From: Candidatus Saccharimonadota bacterium
GTDB lineage: Bacteria; Patescibacteriota; Saccharimonadia; Saccharimonadales; Saccharimonadaceae
Direction: 5' to 3'
DNA: 32,000 nucleotides
Assembly (NCBI GenBank): GCA_023898645.1
Contig: CP060232.1
Coordinates: forward strand, 180,001-212,000
Shown here: positions 2,872 to 32,000 of the stretch, in pieces
Layout: each line of letters starts with the position of its first letter
Position numbering within the stretch: the first letter of the stretch is position 1
Made by a program: the position numbers and the translations under genes
The notes under the pieces: generated by a model
The model's input: only the letters and a program-made list of their open reading frames with translations
Told to the model about the DNA's origin: nothing
Databases searched by the model: none

Positions 2872-4722
2872 ATGGACCAAAGTCACATCCGAAATTTCTG
2901 CATCATTGCTCATATTGACCACGGCAAGTCAACGCTTGCCGATCGTATGATGGAAATGACGCATACTGTCGAAAAGCGCGATATGAAATCGCAGCTGCTC
3001 GATAGTATGGATTTGGAGCGTGAAAAGGGTATCACGATCAAGCTCGCACCGGTGCGGATGGCGTATGCGCCTAGAGTAGATGGTAGTTTGTATGTAGTAG
3101 ATGGTGAGAAAAAAAATACCAAATACCAAATACCAAATACCACCTACCAACTAAATCTTATCGACACTCCCGGCCACGTGGACTTTAGCTACGAAGTAAG
3201 CCGTAGTTTGGAGGCATGCGAAGGTGCCGTGTTGGTGGTGGACGCTAGTCAGGGCATTCAGGCGCAGACACTCGCGAATGTATATTTGGCACTGGCTGCA
3301 GATTTGACGATTATTCCGGTGCTTAACAAGATTGATCTACCGGCTGCAGACGTGCCGCGTGTGAGTGCGGAAATTATCAATTTGCTTGGCTGTGACGAAT
3401 CAGACATTTTGAAAATTAGCGCAAAAACAGGCGAGGGTGTAATTGAGGTACTCGATGCAATCGTAGAGCGCATCGCTCCGCCAAAAGGCGACGAAAGCGC
3501 ACCGACGCGTTCGCTGATTTTTGACAGTTATTACGATGATTATCGCGGGGTGATTTTGTATACGCGGACGTTTGACGGAAGCATCAAAAAAGGCGATACA
3601 ATCGAAATGCTTGCCACTGGAGCCCACGGCCTGGCGCTTGAAGTTGGTGCTCTGAACCCAGTGATGAAACCGGGCGAAGCCATCGCAACTGGTGAGATCG
3701 GCTATATCGTGACCAACCTCAAGACCACTCGCGATGCCAAGGTAGGCGATACGGTCACGGTCAAGCGAGCACATGCCAGCGAGCCACTCCCAGGGTATCA
3801 GAACGTCAAGCCATTTGTATATGCTGGGTTCTTCCCAGTGAGTAATGAAGATTATAACGATCTCAAAGATGCTGTCGAAAAGCTCAGCCTGAGCGATAGC
3901 GCATTGCAATTCGAGCCCGAAAACTCTCCGGTACTTGGCTTTGGTGTGCGTATTGGGTTCCTCGGCCTACTGCATATGGATATTATTCGTGAGCGATTGG
4001 AACGTGAATATGACCTTGATTTGGTCGTCACTAATCCATCGACCGATTATCAGGTGACTTTGGCAAAAGGTGAGGAGATTGATATCAAATCCGCGAGCGA
4101 TTTACCAGATATGAGCAAAGTTGCAGAAATACGTGAACCATGGATCAACGGCGAAATCGTGGTGCCGCAAGATTACATTGGCAACGTGATTCAATTGATT
4201 GTGAGCAAACGCGGCAAGCAAAAGAACCTGAGCTACATAGACGAGCGAGCACTCATCAGTTTTGAAGCGCCACTTGCAAATCTGCTCACTGACTTTTACG
4301 ACCAACTCAAGAGTGTGACGAGCGGCTACGGTAGCTTTAACTACGAGTTGAGCGAATATCGTGCTGAAGATTTGGTACGCGTTGATTTCTATGTTGCTGG
4401 CGAAATTGTCGATTCGCTCAGTATTATGCTGCATCGGTCTGAGGCTGAATCTGTCGGTAGGGTAGTAGTCAAAAAGCTCAAAGACGTGATTCCGCGGCAA
4501 AATTTCCAAGTGGCGTTGCAGGCGGCAATTGGTGGTCGATTCATCGCGCGCGAAGATTTGAGTGCATATCGCAAAGACGTGACGACTGGGCTGTATGGTG
4601 GAGACGTAAGCCGCAAAAAGAAAGTCCTCGCCAAGCAGGCAAAAGGCAAAAAACGCATGAAGCGCTTCGGAAAGGTGGATATTCCGTCCGAAGCTTTCAC
4701 GGTGATGCTAAAGCGCGACTAG
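2872..4722 (+). CDS. lepA: Elongation factor 4 (LepA), translational GTPase
   Basis: The N-terminus IRNFCIIAHIDHGKSTLADR (G1), LIDTPGHVDFSYEVSRSL (G3), NKIDLP (G4) and the C-terminal LepA-specific region (...GGDVSRKKKVLAKQAKGKKRMK...) are unmistakable. The protein is 616 aa, with a ~19-aa insertion before G3. Confidence 0.97.
   Translation: MDQSHIRNFCIIAHIDHGKSTLADRMMEMTHTVEKRDMKSQLLDSMDLEREKGITIKLAPVRMAYAPRVDGSLYVVDGEKKNTKYQIPNTTYQLNLIDTPGHVDFSYEVSRSLEACEGAVLVVDASQGIQAQTLANVYLALAADLTIIPVLNKIDLPAADVPRVSAEIINLLGCDESDILKISAKTGEGVIEVLDAIVERIAPPKGDESAPTRSLIFDSYYDDYRGVILYTRTFDGSIKKGDTIEMLATGAHGLALEVGALNPVMKPGEAIATGEIGYIVTNLKTTRDAKVGDTVTVKRAHASEPLPGYQNVKPFVYAGFFPVSNEDYNDLKDAVEKLSLSDSALQFEPENSPVLGFGVRIGFLGLLHMDIIRERLEREYDLDLVVTNPSTDYQVTLAKGEEIDIKSASDLPDMSKVAEIREPWINGEIVVPQDYIGNVIQLIVSKRGKQKNLSYIDERALISFEAPLANLLTDFYDQLKSVTSGYGSFNYELSEYRAEDLVRVDFYVAGEIVDSLSIMLHRSEAESVGRVVVKKLKDVIPRQNFQVALQAAIGGRFIAREDLSAYRKDVTTGLYGGDVSRKKKVLAKQAKGKKRMKRFGKVDIPSEAFTVMLKRD
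3109..3148 (+). repeat. A8 homopolymer followed by heptanucleotide microsatellite (AAATACC x4 plus one degenerate unit) inside lepA
   Basis: The A-run is at 3109-3116. Perfect AAATACC units are at 3114-3120, 3121-3127, 3128-3134 and 3135-3141, and a degenerate ACCTACC is at 3142-3148. The stretch encodes EKKNTKYQIPNTTYQ. Confidence 0.9.
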
Positions 4723-4842
4723 CGAGCCCATTTCTCGCCCAAAATGCAACTGGGGTGGCTTATCTGTTGCATCCAAGCCATAACTATAATAAACTAAAAG
4801 ACACAAGATAACAGATAAAACCATAGGGGGTAGTATCCGCTC

Positions 4843-5061
4843 GTGTCGATCAATGAGTTGCTAGCATCTGTAAGCAATAAAGAGATGGATCGCAAGGACT
4901 TTTTGAAGTTCTCTCTGTTCGTGATTGCGGGAATGGTTGGTGTTAAGAACATGCTTTCACTGCTAGGGGGTGTTGACTTGCGCCCCGATATGACTCTTGA
5001 AAAAAAGCCGAGCAATACCGGCGGCGGGGTTGGCTATAACAGCGGAAGATACAATAGGTAG
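4843..5061 (+). CDS. Mini-protein P1 (72 aa) with Tat-like signal motif (DRKDFLKF) plus hydrophobic segment and Gly-rich tail
   Basis: GTG start at 4843, with AGGGGG 12 nt upstream. It has two paralogues in the window (25745-25954 and 30825-31028). All three share an N-terminal ~15-aa region, an M-[DT]-R-[KQ]-[DE]-F motif, an h-region and a G/Y/F-rich tail. The gene ends 6 nt before the giant gene. Confidence 0.7.
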   Translation: MSINELLASVSNKEMDRKDFLKFSLFVIAGMVGVKNMLSLLGGVDLRPDMTLEKKPSNTGGGVGYNSGRYNR

Positions 5062-5067
5062 CTTGTT

Positions 5068-8000
5068 GTGGTAGAGCAACGATTACCTGCTATTGATGGT
5101 GACGAAGGGCATTGGGGCGAGATCCTTAATCAATTTCTTTCTAAGGAGCACCACAATACTGGTCTGGACGACCCAACCAACGGTGGCCACCAAAAAATCA
5201 CCATTCAACCCGGTACCGCAGCTGCTGGCACTGCACCGCTCAAGTTCACCAGTGGCACACTCCTCACCGCTCCCGAAGCCGGAGCCATGGAATTCGCCGG
5301 AGACAATTACTACCTCACGCAAACGACTGGCACTACCCGCAAAAAGATCGCCGCTTACGACGATACCTCTGGCGCCACCGGCGACATCTACTACCGCAAT
5401 TCATCTGGCTACTTCACCCGACTCGGCGTTGGCTCTACTGGTAATGTCCTTACTGTTGCCGGAGGTATCCCTTCGTGGTCTTCTTCTATTAGCAACACGA
5501 GCACCATCACTCTCAAAGACACGAACTTCACTTTGCAAGATGACGGCAATACGACCAAGCAGCTCAAGTTTGAACTCAGTGGCATATCTGCAAGCACTAC
5601 GAGAACTCTTACAGTTCCAGACGCCAATACGACAATCGTGGGTACCGACGTCACGCAGACGTTGACGAATAAAACCATTACTAGTCCGACGATTGATGGC
5701 ACGCCAATTAGTACATTTGCTGATACGTCGGGCGGTTCTACGGTTGGGCGTAAATATCTCCTAGATATACCTATCGTTCCAGATCAAACAAGTGCTGGTG
5801 TGAGCGGCGGCGCAACTATTGTGGGCTTGCAAAATGATCTGGCGTATTTAACGGCACGAGGTGGTGCGATTACAGTTACCCAAAACAGTGTTGATATATC
5901 AAGTTCGGTGTTGCCTGAAAACTGGTTCATTCCAGGTAATTATGTCAATTTGCCTGTAGATGCAACAAGCGATGTATACGTCATCACGATCACTAGGCCA
6001 ACTAGTAATATATATAGTAATTATTGGGGGTGGGGCCAGATAGGGCTTAATTTTCGTAACGGATTCCACGCCAAAGACGTAAAGCTTGAGGTCAACTCAG
6101 GTGGCGTATGGACGACACTGCTTGATGTTACGAATGATTCATCATCTGCAAAATTTGCTCGTTATCAGACACTTAATCCGCCATACGCTGAGCAATTTCG
6201 AATTACTCTAACTAATCTAGCTTACGTCAATGTTACTGGTCTGCGAATACAGAATATTTGGGCGACGAGTTTATCGGCCAATCCGGCGGTAATGTCTAAC
6301 CTTACGTATTTACCTCGCGGAGGCGGCTCTATTATTGGTACGTCTGCGGCACCTCCAACATTTACAGCAGCAGGAAATGATTCAAATATTGGTATCAACT
6401 TGGTACCAAAGGGTACGGGAACTGTCACGGTAGGGGGAGTGGACGTCGTTACAACAACTGGTACCCAAACGCTGACGAATAAGACGCTGACAAATCCTAG
6501 AATTAATCAGATTAATGACACCAACGGAAACACCTCTATAGCACTAATTGCCACTGCTAGTGCTGTGAGCTATTTGCATGTAACCAATGCTGCCACCGGG
6601 TCGTTTGCCGTCGGAGGTGGTGTAGTACTGAGGCCAGAAAGCACCGATACAGACGTTAACTTACTCGCCAAGCCGAGAGGATCTGGGTATGTTGGTATTT
6701 CTGATTCTGCGTCTGGCTGGATCGCAAAGTTCGCACGAACCGCTGGCGCAAATGCTAATTATTGGAACATTCAAGGGAGTAGTGCAGGCGGCGCAGTGAC
6801 GCTTACTGCTGCGGGTACTGACAGCTCCATCAATGCCAATATTGTCTCCAAGGGTACGGGTACAGTCCAGGCAAATGGTGTCGATGTCGTCACGACCACC
6901 GGCACGCAAACTCTGACGAACAAAACTATCTCTGGCGCTTCTAATACCCTAAGTAATATTCCTCAATCGGCAATTACCAATCTAACTACTGACATCACCA
7001 CTGCTCAGACTACTGCCGACACTGCGCAGAAGTTCATCGATCTCAAGGCGTCCGGATTGCCTAATATAGCTTCCGATCCAAGCTGTTCGGTTCCTGAATT
7101 GTGGGCTACTAATGGTTTTGGCTCCAACTGGACGGGAGAAGTCAGCAATGAGCAGGCAGTTTCGGGTACCCAATCGCTGAAGATGACGATTACTGGATCG
7201 TCATACCCCACGCTAACCTTCCTACGTACTAAGGATGGCGATTATATTCCAGACATCGACTCGCTTCGGGTTCGCCCAGGCGACAAATTTTACATGGAAG
7301 TGTATATTCGAGCCCATGCTTCGAATGCTGTCACTAATACACTCTTTTATATTCAAGCGTGGTCTACTGACTCCACAGGGGTAAATGGCTACGCCTTCAT
7401 CAATAGTACCGGAGTCGCGCCAAGTACGAGTGGCTGGACGAAGCTAACTCATACCTATACAGTGCCTGCCGGTCGGGATCGATTGAACATAAGACTCGCC
7501 GGAAGCCTCAACAATGGGATTGGCGATATTTATTATGTCGACAATCTATTGTGGTTGAATGTTACCGATACTCAAGACATCATAGACAATGTTTATCAGG
7601 GTATAAACGGCGGATCTAGTACGTGGAATTCACTTGCTACTATGAAGACCGCTATCCAATCTCTAGTCACGCTCACAGGCACTCAGACTCTTACAAATAA
7701 GACGTTGACGTCGCCAAAGATTAATCAAATTCTCGACAGCAATGGCGTGGCTGTCCTTGGCCTTACTACTACTGCAAGTGCAGCAAACTATGTCAATATC
7801 CGCAACAAGGCTGCCGGTTCTGGTCCGTTTGTCGAGACAGCTGGTTCTGATACCGATATTCCTCTTAATTTAAGCACGAAGGGTACAGGCCTTATCCATC
7901 TTTCTCCTGGTGGTACTGCGGCGCTGCAGGTTGGATATACTGCATCATCTGTAAACTATTTTAGACTTACAGGAAGCGCAACTGGTTCTGGACCGACGCT

Positions 8001-11000
8001 TTTCGCGAATGGCACCGACACGAATGTCGACATGTTGCTGACGACTAAGGGCTCGGGTGTTGTTAAGGCAAATGGTGTTGAAGTGGTGACTGTAGACGGC
8101 ACCCAAACTTTGACGAACAAAACAATCACATCACCTGTGATTAATAGTGCTACTGGTATCTCTGTTGGTGCGGTGGTATCTCCTACTGGTTCATCGAATC
8201 CTCCTAAAATTACCTTTAATCTGACATACGGCACGAATTCGCCGGGTAGTAATGCCAACCAAAAGATTCAACTCTACGCGGGCTATGGTTTTGGCTTGTC
8301 TGCTTCTATGCTTGAATACCAAGTAGTTACTGGCGCTGTCCATCGCTTCTTCGTAGGTGGCAGCGAACGAATGTCGATAAGTGGATCTGATGTGACAATC
8401 GGTGGAGTATCCGCTGCAACTACAACAGGTACGCAAACCCTCACCAATAAAACACTGACATCACCTAAGGTAAATTCAATCTATGATACCAATGGCGCAA
8501 ACGCGCTGTATATGACACCTACAGCGAATGCAGTTAATTATACCGAGTTGCGAAACGCTCCGGCGGGAAGCGCTAATCAGATTCGAAGTATTGGAGCAGA
8601 CACGAATATTAGCATGATGTTGGTGCCTAAGGGTAGCGGAAACGTTCAAATCTATTCCAATACCGGCATTACTCCGACTATTACTGCTGTTGGTGCAGAT
8701 GCCAATCACAATCTAAACCTCGTTCCTAAAGGCACTGGCACAGTACAGGCAAATGGTGTCGATATCGTTACTATATCTGGTACACAAACTCTCGCCAACA
8801 AAACTCTGACGAGTCCAAAAATAAATGCAATACTGGATACGAATGGCGCCACATCTCTTTCGGTTGGTGCCACAGCAAGTGCTGTAAACTATCTGACGAT
8901 TAATAATTCAGCCACGTCTTTGGCACCTAATCTTACCGCGACCGGATCTGACGCGAATATCAATCTAGACCTTAATCCAAAGGGCTCGGGCAAGGTACGA
9001 ATTATCGGTGTTCCAGTAGTAACCGAAACTGGCGGAGCGACCCTTACCAATAAAACTATCTCTGCGTCGAGCAATACTATATCTAATATTGCTGTATCAA
9101 ATCTCGACGCCAGTGCAGTTGTGACGGCAGCAGAAACTATAGCAGCCAACAACAACGACACGACTATTCCAACTTCGGCGGCAGTAAAGAGTTACGTAGA
9201 TAGCACGGGTAGTGGAGATGCATCGACCAATACTGCAACGTCGGTAGATAGCGAAGTGGCTGTATTTTCTGGTACGACAGGCAAGTTACTCAAGCGCGCC
9301 ACAGGCAGCGGTGTAGCCATACTAACATCGGGTGTCCTGAGCACAGTTACGGCACCGAGTGGCACGATTGTTGGTACCACCGACGCGCAGACACTTACCA
9401 ACAAAACGCTCACAAGTCCGACGATTAATGGAGCGACAATTACTGGTACGGTTCAGCTTCCTGAGCCGAATCAACTTACTGTTTCCTCGGCAAGTTTGAC
9501 TAACAAGAATTACGCTATATCCAATGACGTTTCGATTGGTGCATATCCTGCTTTCAATGCTTTTAGTAAGTACTTGTGGCACGATATTCTCCGATTTGGT
9601 AGGTGGATTGGAACGGGCACCTATGAAACATATGCAAGCGGTTCTTGGTCGAGTGCTACTAATCCGACAATCGTTTTCGCCGGCAAGGAGTCTGGTGCGT
9701 ATACACTCGCCGACGGAGCAACAACTACTGCCGTACGATGGACGTGGAATTCCGGCAATTTGTCATATAGTGGCCTATCTTGGATAATGATTGGCTTCGG
9801 CTATGGTAGTCCGGCTCCAAGTAATGAAGTTACAGTTGAATCAGGTACAGACGGTACCAACTGGACGACCCGACATACCTCTACTACAACTGCCAATGCG
9901 ACGTTCGCGGCCTTTCCGTTGACGGGTGTGGGTGGTGATACGTATTTACGCTTGACTATCACTACTACAAACAGTCGGCCTATTTACCTCAATTCGATAA
10001 AGGGACTAACTAACAGGCCCGCAAATCAAGGTGGTGGTGCGGATACTGAGTATCCTTATGACTGGGATGCCAATCGAAATATCACTCTGGGATCAGGGAT
10101 TACTGCGCGCTCCGACGGTATTCTTAATATTGGCTCTACGACTACGACTACAGCTGCGGGCGGTATTTATTTTGGCAACGACACGAACTTATATCGCAGC
10201 GCAGCGAACACCCTCAAGACAGACGACAATCTAGCCATCGGTACATCCACTCAGACCGCCACAGCTACCCCCGCCAACATCAACCTCGGTGGTACGTATG
10301 GCAACAATACCGTTGGTACTCAGGGTAATCTCAAGTTGCGACTATACGACAATGGTAGTGGCAGCAACCATTTTGGTTTGGGTATTTCGGATTCCAAGCT
10401 GGAATATCAGGTACCGAATGGGTCTGGCCATCATTTTTATGTCAATGGCGTCGAGCGGCTCAAGATTACCAACTCTTTGGTGCAGGTTGCCGGTGCTGAT
10501 GTAGTCACCACTACTGGCACGCAGACATTGACCAACAAAACTCTGACGAGTCCAAAAATAAATGCAATACTGGATACGAATGGCGCCACATCTCTTTCGG
10601 TTGGTGCCACAGCAAGTGCTGTAAACTATCTGACGATTAATAATTCAGCCACGTCTTTGGCACCTAATCTTACCGCGACCGGATCTGACGCGAATATCAA
10701 TCTAGACCTTAATCCAAAGGGCTCGGGCAAGGTACGAATTATCGGTGTTCCAGTAGTAACCGAAACTGGCGGAGCGACCCTTACCAATAAAACTATCTCT
10801 GCGTCGAGCAATACTATATCTAATATTGCTGTATCAAATCTCGACGCCAGTGCAGTTGTGACGGCAGCAGAAACTATAGCAGCCAACAACAACGACACGA
10901 CTATTCCAACTTCGGCGGCAGTAAAGAGTTACGTAGATAGCACGGGTAGTGGAGATGCATCGACCAATACTGCAACGTCGGTAGATAGCGAAGTGGCTGT

Positions 11001-13230
11001 ATTTTCTGGTACGACAGGCAAGTTACTCAAGCGCGCCACAGGCAGCGGTGTAGCCATACTAACATCGGGTGTCCTGAGCACAGTTACGGCACCGAGTGGC
11101 ACGATTGTTGGTACCACCGACGCGCAGACACTTACCAACAAAACGCTCACAAGTCCGACGATTAATGGAGCGACAATTACTGGTACGGTTCAGCTTCCTG
11201 AGCCGAATCAACTTACTGTTTCCTCGGCAAGTTTGACTAACAAGAATTACGCTATATCCAATGACGTTTCGATTGGTGCATATCCTGCTTTCAATGCTTT
11301 TAGTAAGTACTTGTGGCACGATATTCTCCGATTTGGTAGGTGGATTGGAACGGGCACCTATGAAACATATGCAAGCGGTTCTTGGTCGAGTGCTACTAAT
11401 CCGACAATCGTTTTCGCCGGCAAGGAGTCTGGTGCGTATACACTCGCCGACGGAGCAACAACTACTGCCGTACGATGGACGTGGAATTCCGGCAATTTGT
11501 CATATAGTGACCTATCTTGGATAATGATTGGCTTCGGCTATGGTAGTCCGGCTCCAAGTAATGAAGTTACAGTTGAATCAGGTACAGACGGTACCAACTG
11601 GACGACCCGACATACCTCTACTACAACTGCCAATGCGACGTTCGCGGCCTTTCCGTTGACGGGTGTGGGTGGTGATACGTATTTACGCTTGACTATCACT
11701 ACTACAAACAGTCGGCCTATTTACCTCAATTCGATAAAGGGACTAACTAACAGGCCCGCAAATCAAGGTGGTGGTGCGGATACTGAGTATCCTTATGACT
11801 GGGATGCCAATCGAAATATCACTCTGGGATCAGGGATTACTGCGCGCTCCGACGGTATTCTTAATATTGGCTCTACGACTACGACTACAGCTGCGGGCGG
11901 TATTTATTTTGGCAACGACACGAACTTATATCGCAGCGCAGCGAACACCCTCAAGACAGACGACAATCTAGCCATCGGTACATCCACTCAGACCGCCACA
12001 GCTACCCCCGCCAACATCAACCTCGGTGGTACGTATGGCAACAATACCGTTGGTACTCAGGGTAATCTCAAGTTGCGACTATACGACAATGGTAGTGGCA
12101 GCAACCATTTTGGTTTGGGTATTTCGGATTCCAAGCTGGAATATCAGGTACCGAATGGGTCTGGCCATCATTTTTATGTCAATGGCGTCGAGCGGCTCAA
12201 GATTACCAACTCTTTGGTGCAGGTTGCCGGTGCTGATGTAGTCACCACTACTGGCACGCAGACATTGACCAACAAAACTCTGACGAGTCCAAAAATAAAT
12301 GCAATACTGGATACGAATGGCGCCACATCTCTTTCGGTTGGTGCCACAGCAAGTGCTGTAAACTATCTGACGATTAATAATTCAGCCACGTCTTTGGCAC
12401 CTAATCTTACCGCGACCGGATCTGACGCGAATATCAATCTAGACCTTAATCCAAAGGGCTCGGGCAAGGTACGAATTATCGGTGTTCCAGTAGTAACCGA
12501 AACTGGCGGAGCGACCCTTACCAATAAAACTATCTCTGCGTCGAGCAATACTATATCTAATATTGCTGTATCAAATCTCGACGCCAGTGCAGTTGTGACG
12601 GCAGCAGAAACTATAGCAGCCAACAACAACGACACGACTATTCCAACTTCGGCGGCAGTAAAGAGTTACGTAGATAGCACGGGTAGTGGAGATGCATCGA
12701 CCAATACTGCAACGTCGGTAGATAGCGAAGTGGCTGTATTTTCTGGTACGACAGGCAAGTTACTCAAGCGCGCCACAGGCAGCGGTGTAGCCATACTAAC
12801 ATCGGGTGTCCTGAGCACAGTCACGGCTCCAAGCGGTACGATTGTTGGCACCACGGACGCGCAAACGCTTACAAACAAGACTTTAACAAGCCCGACAGTC
12901 AATGGCTATACCGAGGGTGTTGTGGCTATCGGAACCGTGACAACGAGCTACACGCTTGCTATCACAAGCGGCACAGTACTCACGGCTACATTGACTGCCT
13001 CGACCGCATGTACGTTTACTATGCCTACGGCTACGGCGGGCAAATCATTTACGTTGATGCTTAAGCAAGCGGCAAGCACGGGCAACGGCACCGCAACATT
13101 CACAGGTGTGAAATGGAATGCGGCTGGCGCCCCTACGATCACGGCAACTGCAGGGAAGATGGATATACTTAGCTTCTTCTCAGACGGAACAAATTGGTAC
13201 GGATCATATACACAGGGGTATACGCCGTAA
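5068..13230 (+). CDS. Giant (2720 aa) modular surface/adhesin-like protein with tail-fibre-like modules; no signal peptide
   Basis: A single uninterrupted ORF with a GTG start. It contains many ~75-95-aa modules delimited by G-T-Q-T-L-T-N-K-T-[LI]-T-S-P. A CBM-like jelly-roll lies at ~7096-7563 (ELWATNGFGSNWTGE...YYVDNLLWLNV). Discoidin-like segments are also present (...VESGTDGTNWTT...). Motifs common in phage tail-fibre-like proteins occur (APLKFTSGTLLT.PEAGAMEFAGDNYYLT; DTNLYRSAANTLKTDDNL; TTIPTSAAVKSYVDS). The N-terminus MVEQRLPAIDGDEGHWGEILNQFL is not hydrophobic. Confidence 0.9.
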   Translation: MVEQRLPAIDGDEGHWGEILNQFLSKEHHNTGLDDPTNGGHQKITIQPGTAAAGTAPLKFTSGTLLTAPEAGAMEFAGDNYYLTQTTGTTRKKIAAYDDTSGATGDIYYRNSSGYFTRLGVGSTGNVLTVAGGIPSWSSSISNTSTITLKDTNFTLQDDGNTTKQLKFELSGISASTTRTLTVPDANTTIVGTDVTQTLTNKTITSPTIDGTPISTFADTSGGSTVGRKYLLDIPIVPDQTSAGVSGGATIVGLQNDLAYLTARGGAITVTQNSVDISSSVLPENWFIPGNYVNLPVDATSDVYVITITRPTSNIYSNYWGWGQIGLNFRNGFHAKDVKLEVNSGGVWTTLLDVTNDSSSAKFARYQTLNPPYAEQFRITLTNLAYVNVTGLRIQNIWATSLSANPAVMSNLTYLPRGGGSIIGTSAAPPTFTAAGNDSNIGINLVPKGTGTVTVGGVDVVTTTGTQTLTNKTLTNPRINQINDTNGNTSIALIATASAVSYLHVTNAATGSFAVGGGVVLRPESTDTDVNLLAKPRGSGYVGISDSASGWIAKFARTAGANANYWNIQGSSAGGAVTLTAAGTDSSINANIVSKGTGTVQANGVDVVTTTGTQTLTNKTISGASNTLSNIPQSAITNLTTDITTAQTTADTAQKFIDLKASGLPNIASDPSCSVPELWATNGFGSNWTGEVSNEQAVSGTQSLKMTITGSSYPTLTFLRTKDGDYIPDIDSLRVRPGDKFYMEVYIRAHASNAVTNTLFYIQAWSTDSTGVNGYAFINSTGVAPSTSGWTKLTHTYTVPAGRDRLNIRLAGSLNNGIGDIYYVDNLLWLNVTDTQDIIDNVYQGINGGSSTWNSLATMKTAIQSLVTLTGTQTLTNKTLTSPKINQILDSNGVAVLGLTTTASAANYVNIRNKAAGSGPFVETAGSDTDIPLNLSTKGTGLIHLSPGGTAALQVGYTASSVNYFRLTGSATGSGPTLFANGTDTNVDMLLTTKGSGVVKANGVEVVTVDGTQTLTNKTITSPVINSATGISVGAVVSPTGSSNPPKITFNLTYGTNSPGSNANQKIQLYAGYGFGLSASMLEYQVVTGAVHRFFVGGSERMSISGSDVTIGGVSAATTTGTQTLTNKTLTSPKVNSIYDTNGANALYMTPTANAVNYTELRNAPAGSANQIRSIGADTNISMMLVPKGSGNVQIYSNTGITPTITAVGADANHNLNLVPKGTGTVQANGVDIVTISGTQTLANKTLTSPKINAILDTNGATSLSVGATASAVNYLTINNSATSLAPNLTATGSDANINLDLNPKGSGKVRIIGVPVVTETGGATLTNKTISASSNTISNIAVSNLDASAVVTAAETIAANNNDTTIPTSAAVKSYVDSTGSGDASTNTATSVDSEVAVFSGTTGKLLKRATGSGVAILTSGVLSTVTAPSGTIVGTTDAQTLTNKTLTSPTINGATITGTVQLPEPNQLTVSSASLTNKNYAISNDVSIGAYPAFNAFSKYLWHDILRFGRWIGTGTYETYASGSWSSATNPTIVFAGKESGAYTLADGATTTAVRWTWNSGNLSYSGLSWIMIGFGYGSPAPSNEVTVESGTDGTNWTTRHTSTTTANATFAAFPLTGVGGDTYLRLTITTTNSRPIYLNSIKGLTNRPANQGGGADTEYPYDWDANRNITLGSGITARSDGILNIGSTTTTTAAGGIYFGNDTNLYRSAANTLKTDDNLAIGTSTQTATATPANINLGGTYGNNTVGTQGNLKLRLYDNGSGSNHFGLGISDSKLEYQVPNGSGHHFYVNGVERLKITNSLVQVAGADVVTTTGTQTLTNKTLTSPKINAILDTNGATSLSVGATASAVNYLTINNSATSLAPNLTATGSDANINLDLNPKGSGKVRIIGVPVVTETGGATLTNKTISASSNTISNIAVSNLDASAVVTAAETIAANNNDTTIPTSAAVKSYVDSTGSGDASTNTATSVDSEVAVFSGTTGKLLKRATGSGVAILTSGVLSTVTAPSGTIVGTTDAQTLTNKTLTSPTINGATITGTVQLPEPNQLTVSSASLTNKNYAISNDVSIGAYPAFNAFSKYLWHDILRFGRWIGTGTYETYASGSWSSATNPTIVFAGKESGAYTLADGATTTAVRWTWNSGNLSYSDLSWIMIGFGYGSPAPSNEVTVESGTDGTNWTTRHTSTTTANATFAAFPLTGVGGDTYLRLTITTTNSRPIYLNSIKGLTNRPANQGGGADTEYPYDWDANRNITLGSGITARSDGILNIGSTTTTTAAGGIYFGNDTNLYRSAANTLKTDDNLAIGTSTQTATATPANINLGGTYGNNTVGTQGNLKLRLYDNGSGSNHFGLGISDSKLEYQVPNGSGHHFYVNGVERLKITNSLVQVAGADVVTTTGTQTLTNKTLTSPKINAILDTNGATSLSVGATASAVNYLTINNSATSLAPNLTATGSDANINLDLNPKGSGKVRIIGVPVVTETGGATLTNKTISASSNTISNIAVSNLDASAVVTAAETIAANNNDTTIPTSAAVKSYVDSTGSGDASTNTATSVDSEVAVFSGTTGKLLKRATGSGVAILTSGVLSTVTAPSGTIVGTTDAQTLTNKTLTSPTVNGYTEGVVAIGTVTTSYTLAITSGTVLTATLTASTACTFTMPTATAGKSFTLMLKQAASTGNGTATFTGVKWNAAGAPTITATAGKMDILSFFSDGTNWYGSYTQGYTP
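8795..12831 (+). repeat. 1737-bp (579-codon) in-frame tandem repeat, ~2.3 copies, essentially identical
   Basis: The copies span 8795-10531, 10532-12268 and 12269-12831 (partial). Antisense shadow ORFs recur at exactly +1737 (8889/10626/12363; 9192/10929; 9322/11059; 9524/11261). The one copy1/copy2 difference I located is G9773 vs A11510 (SYSGLSW vs SYSDLSW). Confidence 0.97.
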
Positions 13231-13877
13231 TGTTTGCTGCTACGAGTGCCTTTTTTACTGCATCTGCAGCCTTGGTGACAGGCTATCTGTCTACAGGAGC
13301 TGGAGATAGTTCTGCTACATCTAGGACAACCGCCACGTGGAATCATATTGTGGATGACACAACCAACGGTTACTTAGTTGTCTATGTAATGCACTATAAT
13401 AGCGCTTACACAATCTCCTCCGTTACTTGTAATGGTACGAATATGACTGCGATTAGTGCTCAAGTAAATTGGTCTGACGGAGGTAGTTATGGCTTGAGGG
13501 CATACGGTATTGCAAATCCTACGGTAGGAACAAATACAATTGTAGCTACACTTTCGTCAAGTACGTACATAACTGGTCAGTCGGTATTCTACTCTAATGT
13601 AGATGGTTCTAATGTATCTACGAGTACTACTTTCTCGAATGCTTCTATTCCTTGGTCTGACTCTGTAACTGTACCGGCGAGTGGTATGGTTTCTCATGCC
13701 TTCGGTTCGCTTGGCGCACCAGCGGACACTCCAACTGGCGGAACGATTCGATATAATTACGGTACGCATTATAACTGGCTTACTATACAAGATACGGACA
13801 CATCAGATACCTTTGCTACAGTAAGTGGCAATGGCCGCGGCTGGGGGGCTATTAGTGTATCTCTTCCCCGTGCCTGA
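13230..13877 (+). CDS. Hypothetical protein (215 aa from ATG 13230), paralogue of the next gene
   Basis: The ORF track opens at 13194, but the ATG at 13230 overlaps the giant gene's stop as TAATG. The protein shares the pattern T.TW.H....G..V...........V..V.Y.G.......L......Y.........YG......G...... with the following ORF. Confidence 0.7.
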   Translation: MFAATSAFFTASAALVTGYLSTGAGDSSATSRTTATWNHIVDDTTNGYLVVYVMHYNSAYTISSVTCNGTNMTAISAQVNWSDGGSYGLRAYGIANPTVGTNTIVATLSSSTYITGQSVFYSNVDGSNVSTSTTFSNASIPWSDSVTVPASGMVSHAFGSLGAPADTPTGGTIRYNYGTHYNWLTIQDTDTSDTFATVSGNGRGWGAISVSLPRA

Positions 13878-14520
13878 TTCTGGGTATAGTCCTCCGCCAC
13901 CTCCTACGTTAGACTTTCTTGCCGCTGGCGATACTGCAGATAATAACTCATTAAAGACTCTCACCTGGTCGCACACTACCACTGCTGGTGCATGGGTGTT
14001 TTTATGGTTGGCACATTTCGCCCAGACTGGTGGTCCGAATACTGTTACTTATGACGGGAATGATATTACTGGAAACTTATTAGCATCTACAGCTTATACC
14101 GATAGTACCTATCTTAAGTTATATGGTTTTCAGGATGTCACAGGTGGTACAAAAACTTTTGCGATAACTCAAGGTGGCGGTAACACAATGAGGTATGCCG
14201 TAGCTAATTCTGTATCTTATACGGGCATAGCATCGGTGGGTACGCCAGCAACTGCTACTGGTACGCTCACGGAAACGATTAATTGTGTCTCGAATCAATA
14301 TATCTTGCAGTCTTTTGCACGATACTCAGGTACTGCTACAGGTACTATGAATGCTGCTTTCAGCGGCGGTGCGGCTGGAATAAACATTTTTGACAATGTA
14401 GTGCGCGCGACAGGAGGTCGAGGTGGTATATTGATTAACTTTGCCGATGCTAGTACTACATTTTCACTTTCCGATAGTCTCGTAGCGCATAGTATAGGGG
14501 TTGTACTAACGAGAACGTAG
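13825..14520 (+). CDS. Hypothetical protein (231 aa), paralogue of 13230-13877; start uncertain
   Basis: The ORF overlaps the previous gene by 53 nt in the +1 frame. The alternative start is GTG at 13870. It contains a PPPPP stretch and the paralogous core LTWSHTTTAGAWVFLWLAHF...VTYDGNDIT...LKLYGFQDVTGGTKTF. Confidence 0.65.
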   Translation: MAMAAAGGLLVYLFPVPDSGYSPPPPPTLDFLAAGDTADNNSLKTLTWSHTTTAGAWVFLWLAHFAQTGGPNTVTYDGNDITGNLLASTAYTDSTYLKLYGFQDVTGGTKTFAITQGGGNTMRYAVANSVSYTGIASVGTPATATGTLTETINCVSNQYILQSFARYSGTATGTMNAAFSGGAAGINIFDNVVRATGGRGGILINFADASTTFSLSDSLVAHSIGVVLTRT

Positions 14521-24337: not shown

Positions 24338-24523
24338 ATGTTTGGAATAGGGACACCTGAATTAATCATTATCCTGCTGATCGTCCTGTTGTTGGTCGGT
24401 GGAAAAAAACTGCCAGAACTAGCACGTAGCGTAGGCCAGTCAATGCAAGAACTGCGCAAGGGCATGAGTGATGGGTCAAAGAAAACAACAACACGATCTA
24501 GCGAAGAAGCAGAAGAAGCCTAG
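24338..24523 (+). CDS. tatA: Twin-arginine translocase subunit TatA/E
   Basis: MFGIGTPELIIILLIVLLLVGGKKLPELARSVGQSMQELRKG is the canonical TatA TM plus amphipathic helix. SD GGGAG lies upstream. Confidence 0.93.
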   Translation: MFGIGTPELIIILLIVLLLVGGKKLPELARSVGQSMQELRKGMSDGSKKTTTRSSEEAEEA

Positions 24524-25661
24524 TACGCCTAACAAAAACCTGACGTTTTTGGAGCATATTTACGAGCTTCGAACACGTTTGTTTTGGGTGGTATTTGCGC
24601 TTGTTGTCGCATCGGCAATAGGCTTCCAGTTTAAGGATCAATTGATTAGTTTGGTCATGGCACCGCTCCATGGCCAAAAGCTAATTTATTTGACTCCTGG
24701 TGGTGGGTTTAGCTTTATTTTCACCATTAGCATTTATTTCGGTGCTCTTTTGTGTATTCCGATCGCTGTTTATCATATGTATCGCTTTATGGAGCCGTTA
24801 TTGGGTGGTACTTCGCGAAAAGTCGTTGCGGCATTTATAATTATTTCTGCTTTTCTGGCGACAGCAGGCGCTTCGTTTGGCTATTTTGTAACCGTTCCTG
24901 CGGCCATAGATTTTTTGGCAACATTTGCCGGCAATGCCGTGGTGCCAAGCCTTACGGCGGAGTCGTATCTTAGTTTTGTGGTTACATACATATTCGGCCT
25001 TGCAGCATTATTCCAAATTCCGCTGCTTCTCTTTATTTTCGATTATGTACGACCATTGCCGCCAAAGGCACTACTGTCGGCTCAGAGATACGTTATTATA
25101 GCCGCTACAGTTTTGGCGGCGATCATCACGCCTACCCCAGATGCTTTGAATATGGCCATTGTTGCCATACCTATTATTGCCGTGTATGAAGTAGGCGCAA
25201 TCGCTGTGTATATTCGACACCGCGTAGGAGGAAAACGCTATGTTGTTGGGCGGAATACTTTGGATGGCGACGAACCACTAACCGCCATTATTGAAGAGCT
25301 CGAACGATCACATTCCGAAAAAGAGCAGGTGAGGCAGCCGGACTTTGAGGAAGACATGGAATTTGCTTTTGACGATGAACTTGATGTATTTGCCGACGAA
25401 GCGTACGAACCAGTTGCACCCGCCGCTGAATTAAACGAAACGAAGCCAGTGGTGGCTACTGCAAACGTTGCGCCAGTGCAAATAGTATCTTCGCCTGTTC
25501 GTCGCAGCGCGATGGATGGCATGGTGCGTGGCCGAGCTCAACCTGTCGCAATTCGGCCCCCTGCAAGAAACGTACAACCTGCGCGCATGCCGCAGCGACC
25601 AACCATACAGTCTCGACCTATGCGTTCTGTGGACGGTTTTTCGATGATGAGTCGGGCGTAA
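24468..25661 (+). CDS. tatC: Twin-arginine translocase subunit TatC with ~145-aa C-terminal extension
   Basis: LTFLEHIYELRTRLFWV matches the TatC N-terminal HL.ELR.R motif, followed by six hydrophobic segments. The ATG at 24468 overlaps tatA by 56 nt, and there is no in-frame ATG or GTG after the tatA stop. The residues after ~250 are acidic and then Pro/Arg-rich. Confidence 0.88.
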   Translation: MMGQRKQQHDLAKKQKKPSTPNKNLTFLEHIYELRTRLFWVVFALVVASAIGFQFKDQLISLVMAPLHGQKLIYLTPGGGFSFIFTISIYFGALLCIPIAVYHMYRFMEPLLGGTSRKVVAAFIIISAFLATAGASFGYFVTVPAAIDFLATFAGNAVVPSLTAESYLSFVVTYIFGLAALFQIPLLLFIFDYVRPLPPKALLSAQRYVIIAATVLAAIITPTPDALNMAIVAIPIIAVYEVGAIAVYIRHRVGGKRYVVGRNTLDGDEPLTAIIEELERSHSEKEQVRQPDFEEDMEFAFDDELDVFADEAYEPVAPAAELNETKPVVATANVAPVQIVSSPVRRSAMDGMVRGRAQPVAIRPPARNVQPARMPQRPTIQSRPMRSVDGFSMMSRA

Positions 25662-31028: not shown

Positions 31029-31043
31029 AACCGTAATTACACA

Positions 31044-31072
31044 TTGCTCTCACGCTTTCGCGAGGGTATACT
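31044..31072 (+). promoter_or_regulatory. Candidate promoter TTGCTC-N17-TATACT driving a long leader of the second giant gene
   Basis: The -35-like hexamer is at 31044-31049 and the -10 at 31067-31072, with an exact 17-nt spacer. The architecture matches the lepA and hrcA candidates. Confidence 0.4.
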
Positions 31073-31078
31073 AAACAC

Positions 31079-31367
31079 AGACCTTCGAATAGGGGGTCAA
31101 TTCACGTATCAATAACTGAACAAAGGGGTTAATGAAACAGCGTACACCACTGTTTTACATTAAGCGTACCCGTACAGCTTCTCTGTGCACCCCTGTTCAA
31201 ACGATCTGGCCGATTGCAATCGGTCTTGCTCAGTTTGGCTACGGGTTAGGAGCTAGGAGTTGGGAGTTAGGAGTTAGTGGGGTCATCTCTTGGCTCGTTG
31301 CTATTATTTACCAAATCCCAATCACTATTTCCCATCTCCCAATTGACCTCCAAAGGAGGGCACCGTA
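31079..31367 (+). ncRNA. Putative structured 5' leader (cis-regulatory RNA candidate) of the second giant gene
   Basis: The interval contains a 14-bp perfect palindrome, CCGATTGCAATCGG, at 31210-31223. SD-like heptad repeats (TTAGGAGC TAGGAGT TGGGAGT TAGGAGT TAGTGGGG) span 31246-31282. They can pair with a C-rich tract at 31317-31344 for about 20 bp. CCTCC-AAA-GGAGG (31347-31359) folds the real SD into a hairpin. Confidence 0.35.
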
Positions 31368-32000
31368 ATGCCTACTCCGCAACGCCTCCCCATAGTCAAC
31401 TCCGACGACGGTGTTTGGGGTGATATTCTTCGCCAATACCTTGCGAAGGAGCACTTCAACGACGATACCGACAATGCCATCAACGGCGGTCACCAAAAAA
31501 TCACCATCCAGCCGGGCACCGCAGCGGCAGGTACCGCTCCGCTCAAGTTCACCAGCGGTACCCTGCTCACCACTCCCGAAGCCGGAGCCATGGAGTTTGC
31601 CGGCGATAACTACTACCTTACGGACACGTCTGGCCCGACTCGCCGCAAGATTGCCGCCTACGACGACACCTCTGGTGCCACCGGCGATATCTACTACCGC
31701 AATTCGTCTGGCTACTTCACACGACTCGGCATTGGTTCTACTGGCAACGTTCTTACTGTTGCCGGAGGTATCCCATCGTGGTCTTCTTCTATTAGCAACA
31801 CGAGTACCATCACTCTCAAAGACACAAACTTCACCCTGCAAGATGACGGCGATACCACAAAGCAGCTCAAGTTTGAACTCACTGGCATCGCTACTGGCAC
31901 TACTCGAACGTGGTCATTCCCCAACGCCGACTCGGCCTTTGTTGGTACCAATACGGCGCAGACGCTGACAAATAAGACGATCCAGGCCCCGACAATCACC
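31368..32000 (+). CDS. Second giant tail-fibre-like surface protein, N-terminal 211 codons (partial, continues past window)
   Basis: This ORF is not in the supplied track because it has no stop in the window. The ATG at 31368 is preceded by AAAGGAGGG. My translation is MPTPQRLPIVNSDDGVWGDILRQYLAKEH...GGHQKITIQPGTAAAGTAPLKFTSGTLLTTPEAGAMEFAGDNYYLT...TAQTLTNKTIQAPTIT. It is collinear with, and mostly identical to, the first ~210 aa of the 5068 gene. Confidence 0.9.
   Translation, partial: MPTPQRLPIVNSDDGVWGDILRQYLAKEHFNDDTDNAINGGHQKITIQPGTAAAGTAPLKFTSGTLLTTPEAGAMEFAGDNYYLTDTSGPTRRKIAAYDDTSGATGDIYYRNSSGYFTRLGIGSTGNVLTVAGGIPSWSSSISNTSTITLKDTNFTLQDDGDTTKQLKFELTGIATGTTRTWSFPNADSAFVGTNTAQTLTNKTIQAPTIT

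Follow-up and report, generated by a model that had tools for sequence, protein, structure and literature searches.

The window analysed here, the whole 32,000-nucleotide (nt) stretch G000:C1:180001-212000 of a complete 1.13-Mb Saccharimonadales genome, carries near its start a mini-gene, which we call P1 (4843..5061, + strand), and directly downstream of it a gene for a giant fibre-like protein of 2720 amino acids (aa) (5068..13230, +). P1 starts at a GTG, encodes 72 aa and stops at a TAG (5059-5061); its product belongs to a family of mini-proteins associated with the twin-arginine translocation (Tat) exporter and is a distant relative of the NCBIfam model NF038009. The giant gene likewise starts at a GTG, and its product has no signal peptide and opens with an N-terminal tag, VVEQRLPAIDGDEGHWGEILNQFLSKEH, encoded at 5068-5151. 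We show that P1 ends at a genuine TAG stop codon and that the fibre gene starts 6 nt on at its own GTG. The product of P1 is probably, though far from certainly, a separately translated 72-residue membrane mini-protein that is coupled to the fibre and supplies it with a Tat signal or anchor in trans.

The start of P1 is supported by a Shine-Dalgarno-like box, AGGGGG (4825..4830, +), lying 12 nt before the GTG, and by its two closest relatives, L009 and L071, in which the box, the GTG and residues VSINELL are all kept; L071 also retains the spacing between box and start. A candidate -10 box, TATAAT (4785..4790, +), proposed from the sequence, lies 52 nt upstream of the start and has no good -35 box, and a consensus scan of the + strand found no full sigma-70 site.

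The initial annotation had ascribed to P1 the layout of a Tat signal peptide with RK in place of RR, and every element that it named is present: an n-region of 14 residues, the motif K-E-M-D-R-K-D-F-L-K (residues 13-22; 4879..4908, +), a moderately hydrophobic stretch and a Gly/Tyr-rich tail. Within the motif, K13, M15, R17 and F20 are invariant across the four paralogues of the genome, and the family consensus is KEMDR[K/R/Q][DE]FLKY. The h-region, or membrane helix (residues 23-42; 4909..4968, +), is moderately hydrophobic by hydropathy and is interrupted by Lys35; the segment FSLFVIAGMVGVKNMLSLL, which follows D16-R17-K18-D19-F20-L21-K22, has a Kyte-Doolittle value of 1.77 (19 residues), and residues 17-42 are predicted by AlphaFold2 to be helical (pLDDT 70-84). 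The Gly/aromatic tail (4969..5058, +) ends in GYNSGRYNR, the equivalent of the family C-terminus GFGSGKYG(A/V), and is disordered in the AlphaFold2 model. No conserved small-x-small site of the A-x-A signal-peptidase type follows the h-region in alignments A1, A2 and A4, which fits an uncleaved anchor. A match of P1 to QcrA_N was not significant (E 0.22).

Besides P1 the genome encodes P0, which lies 5 kb upstream of the window, P2 and P3, and alignment showed P2 and P3 to be true paralogues of P1. P2 (25745..25954, +) lies directly after tatC, carries the motif MDRQDFLK and matches NF038009 with an E of 1.6e-17; it also gives a weak match to the Tat signal region of NF007382. P3 (30825..31028, +) is separated by 339 nt from the second class I fibre gene, fibre gene 3, which lies downstream and whose 5' part (31368..32000, +) encodes the tag MPTPQRLPIVNSDDGVWGDILRQYLAKEH. 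Three of the four P genes (P0, P1 and P3) are each placed just upstream of a signal-less, tag-bearing fibre gene. NF038009 carries the name 'TatB_1', twin-arginine translocation system-associated protein, and the four paralogues scored 25.3 (P1), 63.5 (P2), 38.8 (P3) and, in the genome search, 53.3 (P0) bits, with E-values from 4e-5 to 5e-17 and every score below the curated 100-bit cut-off. Being significant yet short of 100 bits, the P proteins are relatives of NF038009 and not members by the NCBI rule. The 339 nt between P3 and fibre gene 3 (31029-31367) hold a 78-aa open reading frame (ORF; 31132-31368) with no family match, and the equivalent position measures 230-290 nt in two genomes of the same genus, G098 and G083.

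The fibre tag takes the form RLPx(V/P)xxDxGxWGxILxx(F/Y)L at the N-terminus of the product. Nine genes of the genome encode it, seven of them at 155-217 kb, around tatAC. The 'QRLPxV...KEH' form of the tag occurs only in the giant protein of P1 and in fibre 3, both of which have a P gene with a 'basic-aromatic-Gly-x' tail directly upstream, so that each of the two class I fibres has its own class I P. In most of 90 related loci P lies directly before a tag-bearing fibre gene, and the type of the P tail agreed with the type of the tag in 39 of 44 pairs, the classes having been set post hoc, after the data had been seen. A stretch of about 60 kb, G000:C1:155000-217000, looks like a surface-structure island: besides tatAC and pilus-like cassettes it contains every one of the four P genes and seven of the nine tag genes.

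The tag also turns up in other settings. In many genomes (L010-L025, L072-L100, alignment A4; for example L011:3190-3687) the gene after P encodes only about 165 aa, which correspond to the N-terminal module of the fibre (the tag plus roughly 150 residues) and end in a conserved terminal peptide, GLSQQQVMAISSMRI; this protein may be a base piece in the fibre system, or a stub. In the metagenomic proteins P0041, P0047, P0079 and P0123 the tag is repeated two to three times internally (TRLPxxxxDxxxWGxILNNFLC...) and stands ahead of a repeated module some 100 residues long, so the tag is not always N-terminal.

Hydropathy and the ORF coordinates support the earlier claim that the giant protein, starting 6 nt past P1, lacks a signal peptide. 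Its N-terminus is not hydrophobic (maximum 0.69 in a 15-residue window over the first 60 residues), no membrane segment was found along the whole protein, where nothing exceeds 1.33, and no LPXTG motif was found in it. The GTG at 5068 is homologous to the ATG of the fibre genes in L009 and L071 (MVEQRLPAIDGDEGHWG). The next gene of the operon, phage minor-tail-like (13230..13877, +), has an ATG that overlaps the TAA of the giant gene (TAATG). Together with 13825-14520 it forms a paralogous pair of about 215-230 aa, which match phrog_553 / phrog_2106 'minor tail protein' and have hydrophobic N-termini.

At the junction itself (5056..5067, +) a Shine-Dalgarno-like AGG, 9 nt before the GTG, is followed by the stop codon and by the spacer CTT GTT (5062-5067). 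Coordinates and junction sequence are as first described, with P1 and the giant gene in one frame and a TAG and two codons between them, an arrangement that for a single pair is a 1-in-3 chance event. The TAG is an ordinary stop codon in this genome: prfA, encoding release factor 1 (RF1), was found (465 bits), none of the 44 transfer RNAs (tRNAs) has a CUA anticodon, and TAG terminates 209 of 570 long frames. One of these stops, at 4720-4722, ends lepA at a normal C-terminus 120 nt upstream of P1. An alternative genetic code or suppressor decoding of TAG was rejected, RF1 being present, a CUA tRNA absent and TAG in wide use. A 13-base-pair hairpin in the messenger (5056-5088) spans stop and start and folds no better than shuffled sequences (z -0.69).

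P-fibre junctions were collected from 38 loci of species-representative genomes, 18 loci of a 151-genome Saccharimonadia sample and 49 metagenome loci. Among the 70 junctions with a downstream tag gene, 54 were tight (-1 to 7 nt) and 16 were separated by 56-476 nt. Multiples of three were over-represented: spacers of 3 nt (38 junctions), 6 nt (2) and 0 nt (1) placed 41 of the 54 tight junctions in frame, and the other 13 were out of frame, with spacers of -1 nt (6), 2 nt (2), 5 nt (2), 7 nt (2) and 1 nt (1). Within the sub-clade of P1 the spacer is 6 nt in the window and in L071 (CATACG) and 5 nt in L009, where the frame is broken. For P0 and P3 the distance to the fibre gene is 137 and 339 nt, respectively, and for many P genes no tag gene lies within 700 nt. 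The spacer is itself a stop codon in L016 (TAG-TAA-GTG) and in L099 (TAA-TAG-ATG); two such cases among 34 distinct 3-nt spacers, against 1.6 by chance, indicate no avoidance. The 3-nt spacers have a mildly codon-like composition (GCN in 13 of 34), the entropy being 1.50, 1.58 and 1.86 bits at their first, second and third positions. The stop codon of P is TAG in about 70% of the in-frame junctions and never TGA, and the Shine-Dalgarno box of the fibre gene (GGNG) sits within the final codons of P (K-Y-G-A; R-Y-N-R in P1).

These data show that the conserved feature is a tight translational coupling distance (-1 to 7 nt, mostly 3) and not the frame. Since the relatives conserve distance and not frame, the shared frame of P1 and the giant gene is a by-product of the short spacer, and the in-frame TAG junction is a case of ordinary translational coupling. 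As contributors to the excess of 3n spacers, shared ancestry, termination context, Shine-Dalgarno spacing and selection on frame could not be separated. The initial annotation had entertained low-level TAG read-through or an ancestral fusion, and had looked to orthologues in different frames or far apart as evidence to the contrary; orthologues of both kinds occur. With no suppressor tRNA, RF1 present, a 5-nt spacer in L009, 13 of 54 tight junctions out of frame, tandem stops in L016 and L099 and a single fused ORF, this proposal finds no support. The junction analysis that disposes of read-through is new here.

The suggestion that the two ORFs might be fused in related genomes found no better footing. 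A profile of the natural read-through translations (A2) was searched against 1.84 billion (1.84e9) representative proteins and returned 893 relatives at E<=1e-3 with a top score of 87 bits, where a true fusion was expected to score about 130 or more. The matches fell into two groups, P-type proteins of about 52-137 aa and tag-headed proteins in which the tag begins at residue 1-5, with internal repeats of the tag in a few proteins. The lone P-fibre fusion in this set, P0101, is weak: a 153-aa singleton on a 1698-bp JGI contig, with a transposase adjacent, that has an RR motif and neither the Gly/aromatic tail nor a fibre body. Long open frames around P in G106, G005, G138 and G062 proved to be merely open upstream sequence and were discarded as fusions.

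The Tat machinery of the genome lies in the same window. The sole copies of tatA (24338..24523, +; PF02416, 50.2 bits) and tatC (24468..25661, +; start codon uncertain) form a cluster in the order tatA-tatC-P2, and no tatB was found in the genome. A regular-expression scan of the genome for classical RR signals, below predictor grade, found only about 2-3 plausible N-termini. In 25 of the 38 loci the distance from P to tatC is no more than 3 kb, frequently with the two genes in divergent orientation. Among the 151 Saccharimonadia genomes, 45 were positive for P, 48 for TatC and 47 for the tag. Every one of the 45 with P also carries TatC and the tag, and 46 of the 47 tag-positive genomes are TatC-positive. 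Departing from this pattern are three genomes with TatC but no P, one of them carrying the tag, and a single genome with the tag but no TatC. Presence is patchy within at least ten families; since the genomes are related, the counts are not independent and no P-value is given. The P family accompanies the Tat exporter throughout Saccharibacteria, and exporter, mini-protein and tagged fibres are gained and lost together. The TatC of the window carries a C-terminal extension of about 140 residues (25230-25661; residues ~255-397), an acidic stretch followed by a Pro/Arg/Val-rich tail, that E. coli TatC lacks; open frames of 280-397 aa in relatives suggest that such an extension is common in this class.

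The signal-binding site of TatC offers a comparison with the P motif. In the 2026 cryo-electron microscopy structure of a signal peptide bound to E. coli TatBC (PMC13323110), the first residue of the motif caps a helix, the first arginine contacts E15 of TatC via water and stacks on F94, the second arginine forms a salt bridge to E103 and packs against Y100, and the phenylalanine occupies a pocket of F94, L9, H12 and L13. The layout of the P1 motif matches that of the signal in this structure, D-R-R-R-F-I-K of MdoD. When the TatC of the window was aligned with that of E. coli, H30 corresponded to H12, E33 to E15, F107 to F94, P110 to P97, G113 to Y100 and S116 to E103. The same positions were tallied in 32 TatCs encoded beside P genes: H12 was kept in 32/32, E15 in 31/32, F94 (as F or Y) in 31/32 and P97 in 32/32, and Y100 and an acidic residue at E103 were each found in 0/32. 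On the P side, the position of the second arginine is occupied by K (37), R (5), Q (2), S (1) or L (1), in a tally whose filter demanded the first Arg and the Phe and so made them invariant by construction; both are independently invariant in alignments A1, A2 and A4. The contacts kept and lost thus match on both sides, and this is the strongest argument that the P motif may bind TatC as a signal peptide would. The mapping of TatC changes onto the 2026 structure is new here. True twin-arginine versions of P exist in G061, G097 and G058 (L065-L067) and in P0101 (EVDRREFLAH, PMNRREFLAH), and the TatC of the twin-arginine lineages has N or K at the position of E. coli E103.

Taken together, these results suggest the following course of events. 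A ribosome that ends on P1 would restart on the fibre gene by termination-reinitiation, and through this translational coupling P1 and the fibre would be made together. The K-E-M-D-R-K-D-F-L-K segment of P1 would dock into the signal-peptide groove of TatC, and P1 would enter the membrane N-in/C-out as a signal anchor that is not cleaved. The Gly/aromatic tail of P1 would bind the conserved N-terminal tag of the signal-less fibre, and P1 would in this way give the fibre, in trans, its missing export signal, a membrane anchor, or both. The idea that P1 is a Tat escort, raised in the initial annotation, is the best-supported functional reading, on gene context, co-occurrence and the TatC site; its binding and export steps, which we infer, are unproven. 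The arrangement expected of a hitchhiker, a signal-less cargo co-expressed with a signal-bearing partner, is what we found, with a 6-nt gap at P1 and the coupling distance kept among relatives.

Several observations weigh against this proposal. The twin arginine of S/T-R-R-x-F-L-K is absent, being R-K in P0, P1 and P3 and R-Q in P2, even if P1 has the rest of the Tat motif (helix-capping residue, first Arg, x, F, L and K) and a moderately hydrophobic h-region; the Tat-signal models of Pfam (even at E<=10) and of NCBIfam matched none of the P paralogues. The TatCs next to RR-type P genes likewise lack E103, so the covariation is clade-wide and not pair-specific. In AlphaFold2 models of natural read-through constructs, A2 (P1 + read-through + 44 residues) and A4 (P + 165-aa tag protein), pLDDT was 57 and 52, and the disordered tail gave no information on contacts between tail and tag. 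Tag genes exceed P genes, nine to four in this genome and up to seven to one elsewhere, so the pairing of P and tag is not one to one. Inheritance of a single cassette as a unit may also account for part of the agreement of tail with tag and of the co-occurrence. To our knowledge, a 2720-residue, probably trimeric fibre is also far above the size of any known Tat cargo.

A further point against it comes from phages. The class II tag (MARLPxPGGDxGxWGxILNxFL) stands at the N-terminus of proteins of the Streptomyces phages LuckySocke, Alone3 (gene 41), BRock and GiJojo, with identities up to 62% over 34 residues, a likeness that links the tag to actinophage fibres. In these phages it cannot be an export tag and probably joins the fibre to the virion, so the tail of P might be a docking site and not an export adaptor. 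No relative of P was found in phages: PHROG gave no hit, tblastn against 50,697 phage records returned nothing, and a narrow pattern scanned over viral contigs had no match there.

Four other explanations were weighed against a Tat signal or anchor supplied in trans. P might be an accessory subunit of the translocon, a receptor or adaptor like TatB, which would remain with TatC instead of travelling as a carrier with the cargo, while the fibre-side paralogues tune the translocon to the tag classes. The 'TatB_1 / Tat system-associated protein' label of the nearest NCBIfam model, the presence of tatA and tatC without tatB, the position of P2 within the tatA-tatC-P2 cluster, the single P beside several tag genes in most genomes and the strict co-occurrence of P with TatC all speak for this role. 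We nevertheless consider it rather unlikely: no P protein matches PF02416 (TatA/TatB/TatE) or resembles these subunits, and the order of elements is reversed, with n-region, motif and helix in P and, in TatA/B, the helix first and the amphipathic helix second. The coupling of P to single fibre genes also suggests output in stoichiometry with the cargo, and the motif mimics the substrate side of the TatC-signal interface. The first reading of the annotation, in which P1 is a small membrane or exported peptide that acts on its own, stood in its view of the gene: P is a conserved, complete and separately terminated small gene, with its own Shine-Dalgarno box. It is improbable that such a peptide plays no part in fibre export and lies close to the fibre gene only through a shared island and shared regulation. 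The many P genes with no tag gene inside 700 nt would agree with this; it is contradicted by the placement of P directly 5' of tag genes at coupling distance in dozens of divergent genomes, by the three-way co-occurrence of P, TatC and tag genes, and by a P tail class that follows the tag class.

The remaining two explanations join P and fibre in one chain, now or in the past. Rare read-through of the P stop could yield a small, fixed share of P-fibre chains, with one covalent Tat anchor per trimer and selection keeping the spacer at 3n, in the manner of the minor recoded products (read-through or frameshift) of phage structural genes. This would account for the 41 of 54 tight spacers of 0, 3 or 6 nt and for their mildly codon-like composition, and it could draw on the C that follows the TAG of the window and on the natural fused ORF P0101. 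It is highly unlikely all the same, given RF1 and the missing suppressor tRNA, the 5-nt spacer of L009, which is one of the two closest relatives, the 13 out-of-frame tight junctions and the 16 pairs lying 56-476 nt apart (P0 and P3 included), two stop-codon spacers as chance expects, a stop that is never TGA, and the transposase-associated singleton nature of P0101. Neither a conserved frame or open spacer, nor a decoding agent, nor a recoding signal, as expected of programmed read-through, was found. That P and fibre were once a single gene, from which a stop codon split off the signal peptide, is hardly credible. The very short in-frame spacing of most lineages and the one fused ORF would agree with such a split; against it, the tag starts at residue 1-5 in every tag-only match, the class II tag heads Streptomyces phage proteins that have no P, and the searches of phage records and viral contigs turned up no relative of P.

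Saccharibacteria are ultrasmall, live attached to other bacteria and have large, phage-fibre-like surface proteins that lack signals. If the supply of a Tat signal in trans is real, a Tat export signal would reside on a polypeptide of its own and be common to a whole cargo family through the tag. It would carry the hitchhiker principle well past redox enzymes and provide a probe of the size limits of Tat. In the literature searched we found no description of the P family or of a link between Tat and fibres in Saccharibacteria, and for NF038009, a named model, no published function.

The closest relative by name, NF038009, is a 70-position subfamily model that the P proteins resemble in size, layout and gene placement by tatC; at 24-63 bits they fall below its cut-off and so outside the named subfamily. 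The junction of P1 resembles the termination-reinitiation sites of operons (ATGA, TAATG or gaps of a few nt), with the Shine-Dalgarno box in the end of the upstream coding sequence, and the only oddity with respect to ordinary coupled operons is the excess of exactly 3-nt spacers among the relatives. It also recalls the recoding of Q-beta A1 and lambda G/GT in having a short upstream ORF and a structural gene in one frame with a single stop between them, but it lacks their conserved frame, recoding signal and suppressor tRNA, and some relatives have tandem stops.

With the Rieske Fe-S anchors PetA/QcrA (PMC3623810) and the Tat-inserted tail-anchored proteins (PMC10924467), P would share a Tat-type motif followed by a retained N-in/C-out helix; Rieske proteins carry this anchor within the exported chain itself, whereas the P anchor would be a separate polypeptide. 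The likeness to Tat hitchhiking (PMC4273604, PMC6719666) lies in a signal-less protein that is encoded beside a small partner with a Tat signal, needed only for export and assembly. In the known cases a folded subunit with a true RR signal, usually cleaved, carries a cofactor enzyme whose mass reaches at most about 150 kDa. By contrast, the P carrier is little more than a signal, with RK for RR and no conserved cleavage site. Its cargos resemble phage fibres and reach 2720 residues, and any recognition of them would be through the N-terminal tag that they share. A one-arginine, signal-only carrier that serves phage-type fibres via such a tag would represent a new form of hitchhiking and of signal anchor.

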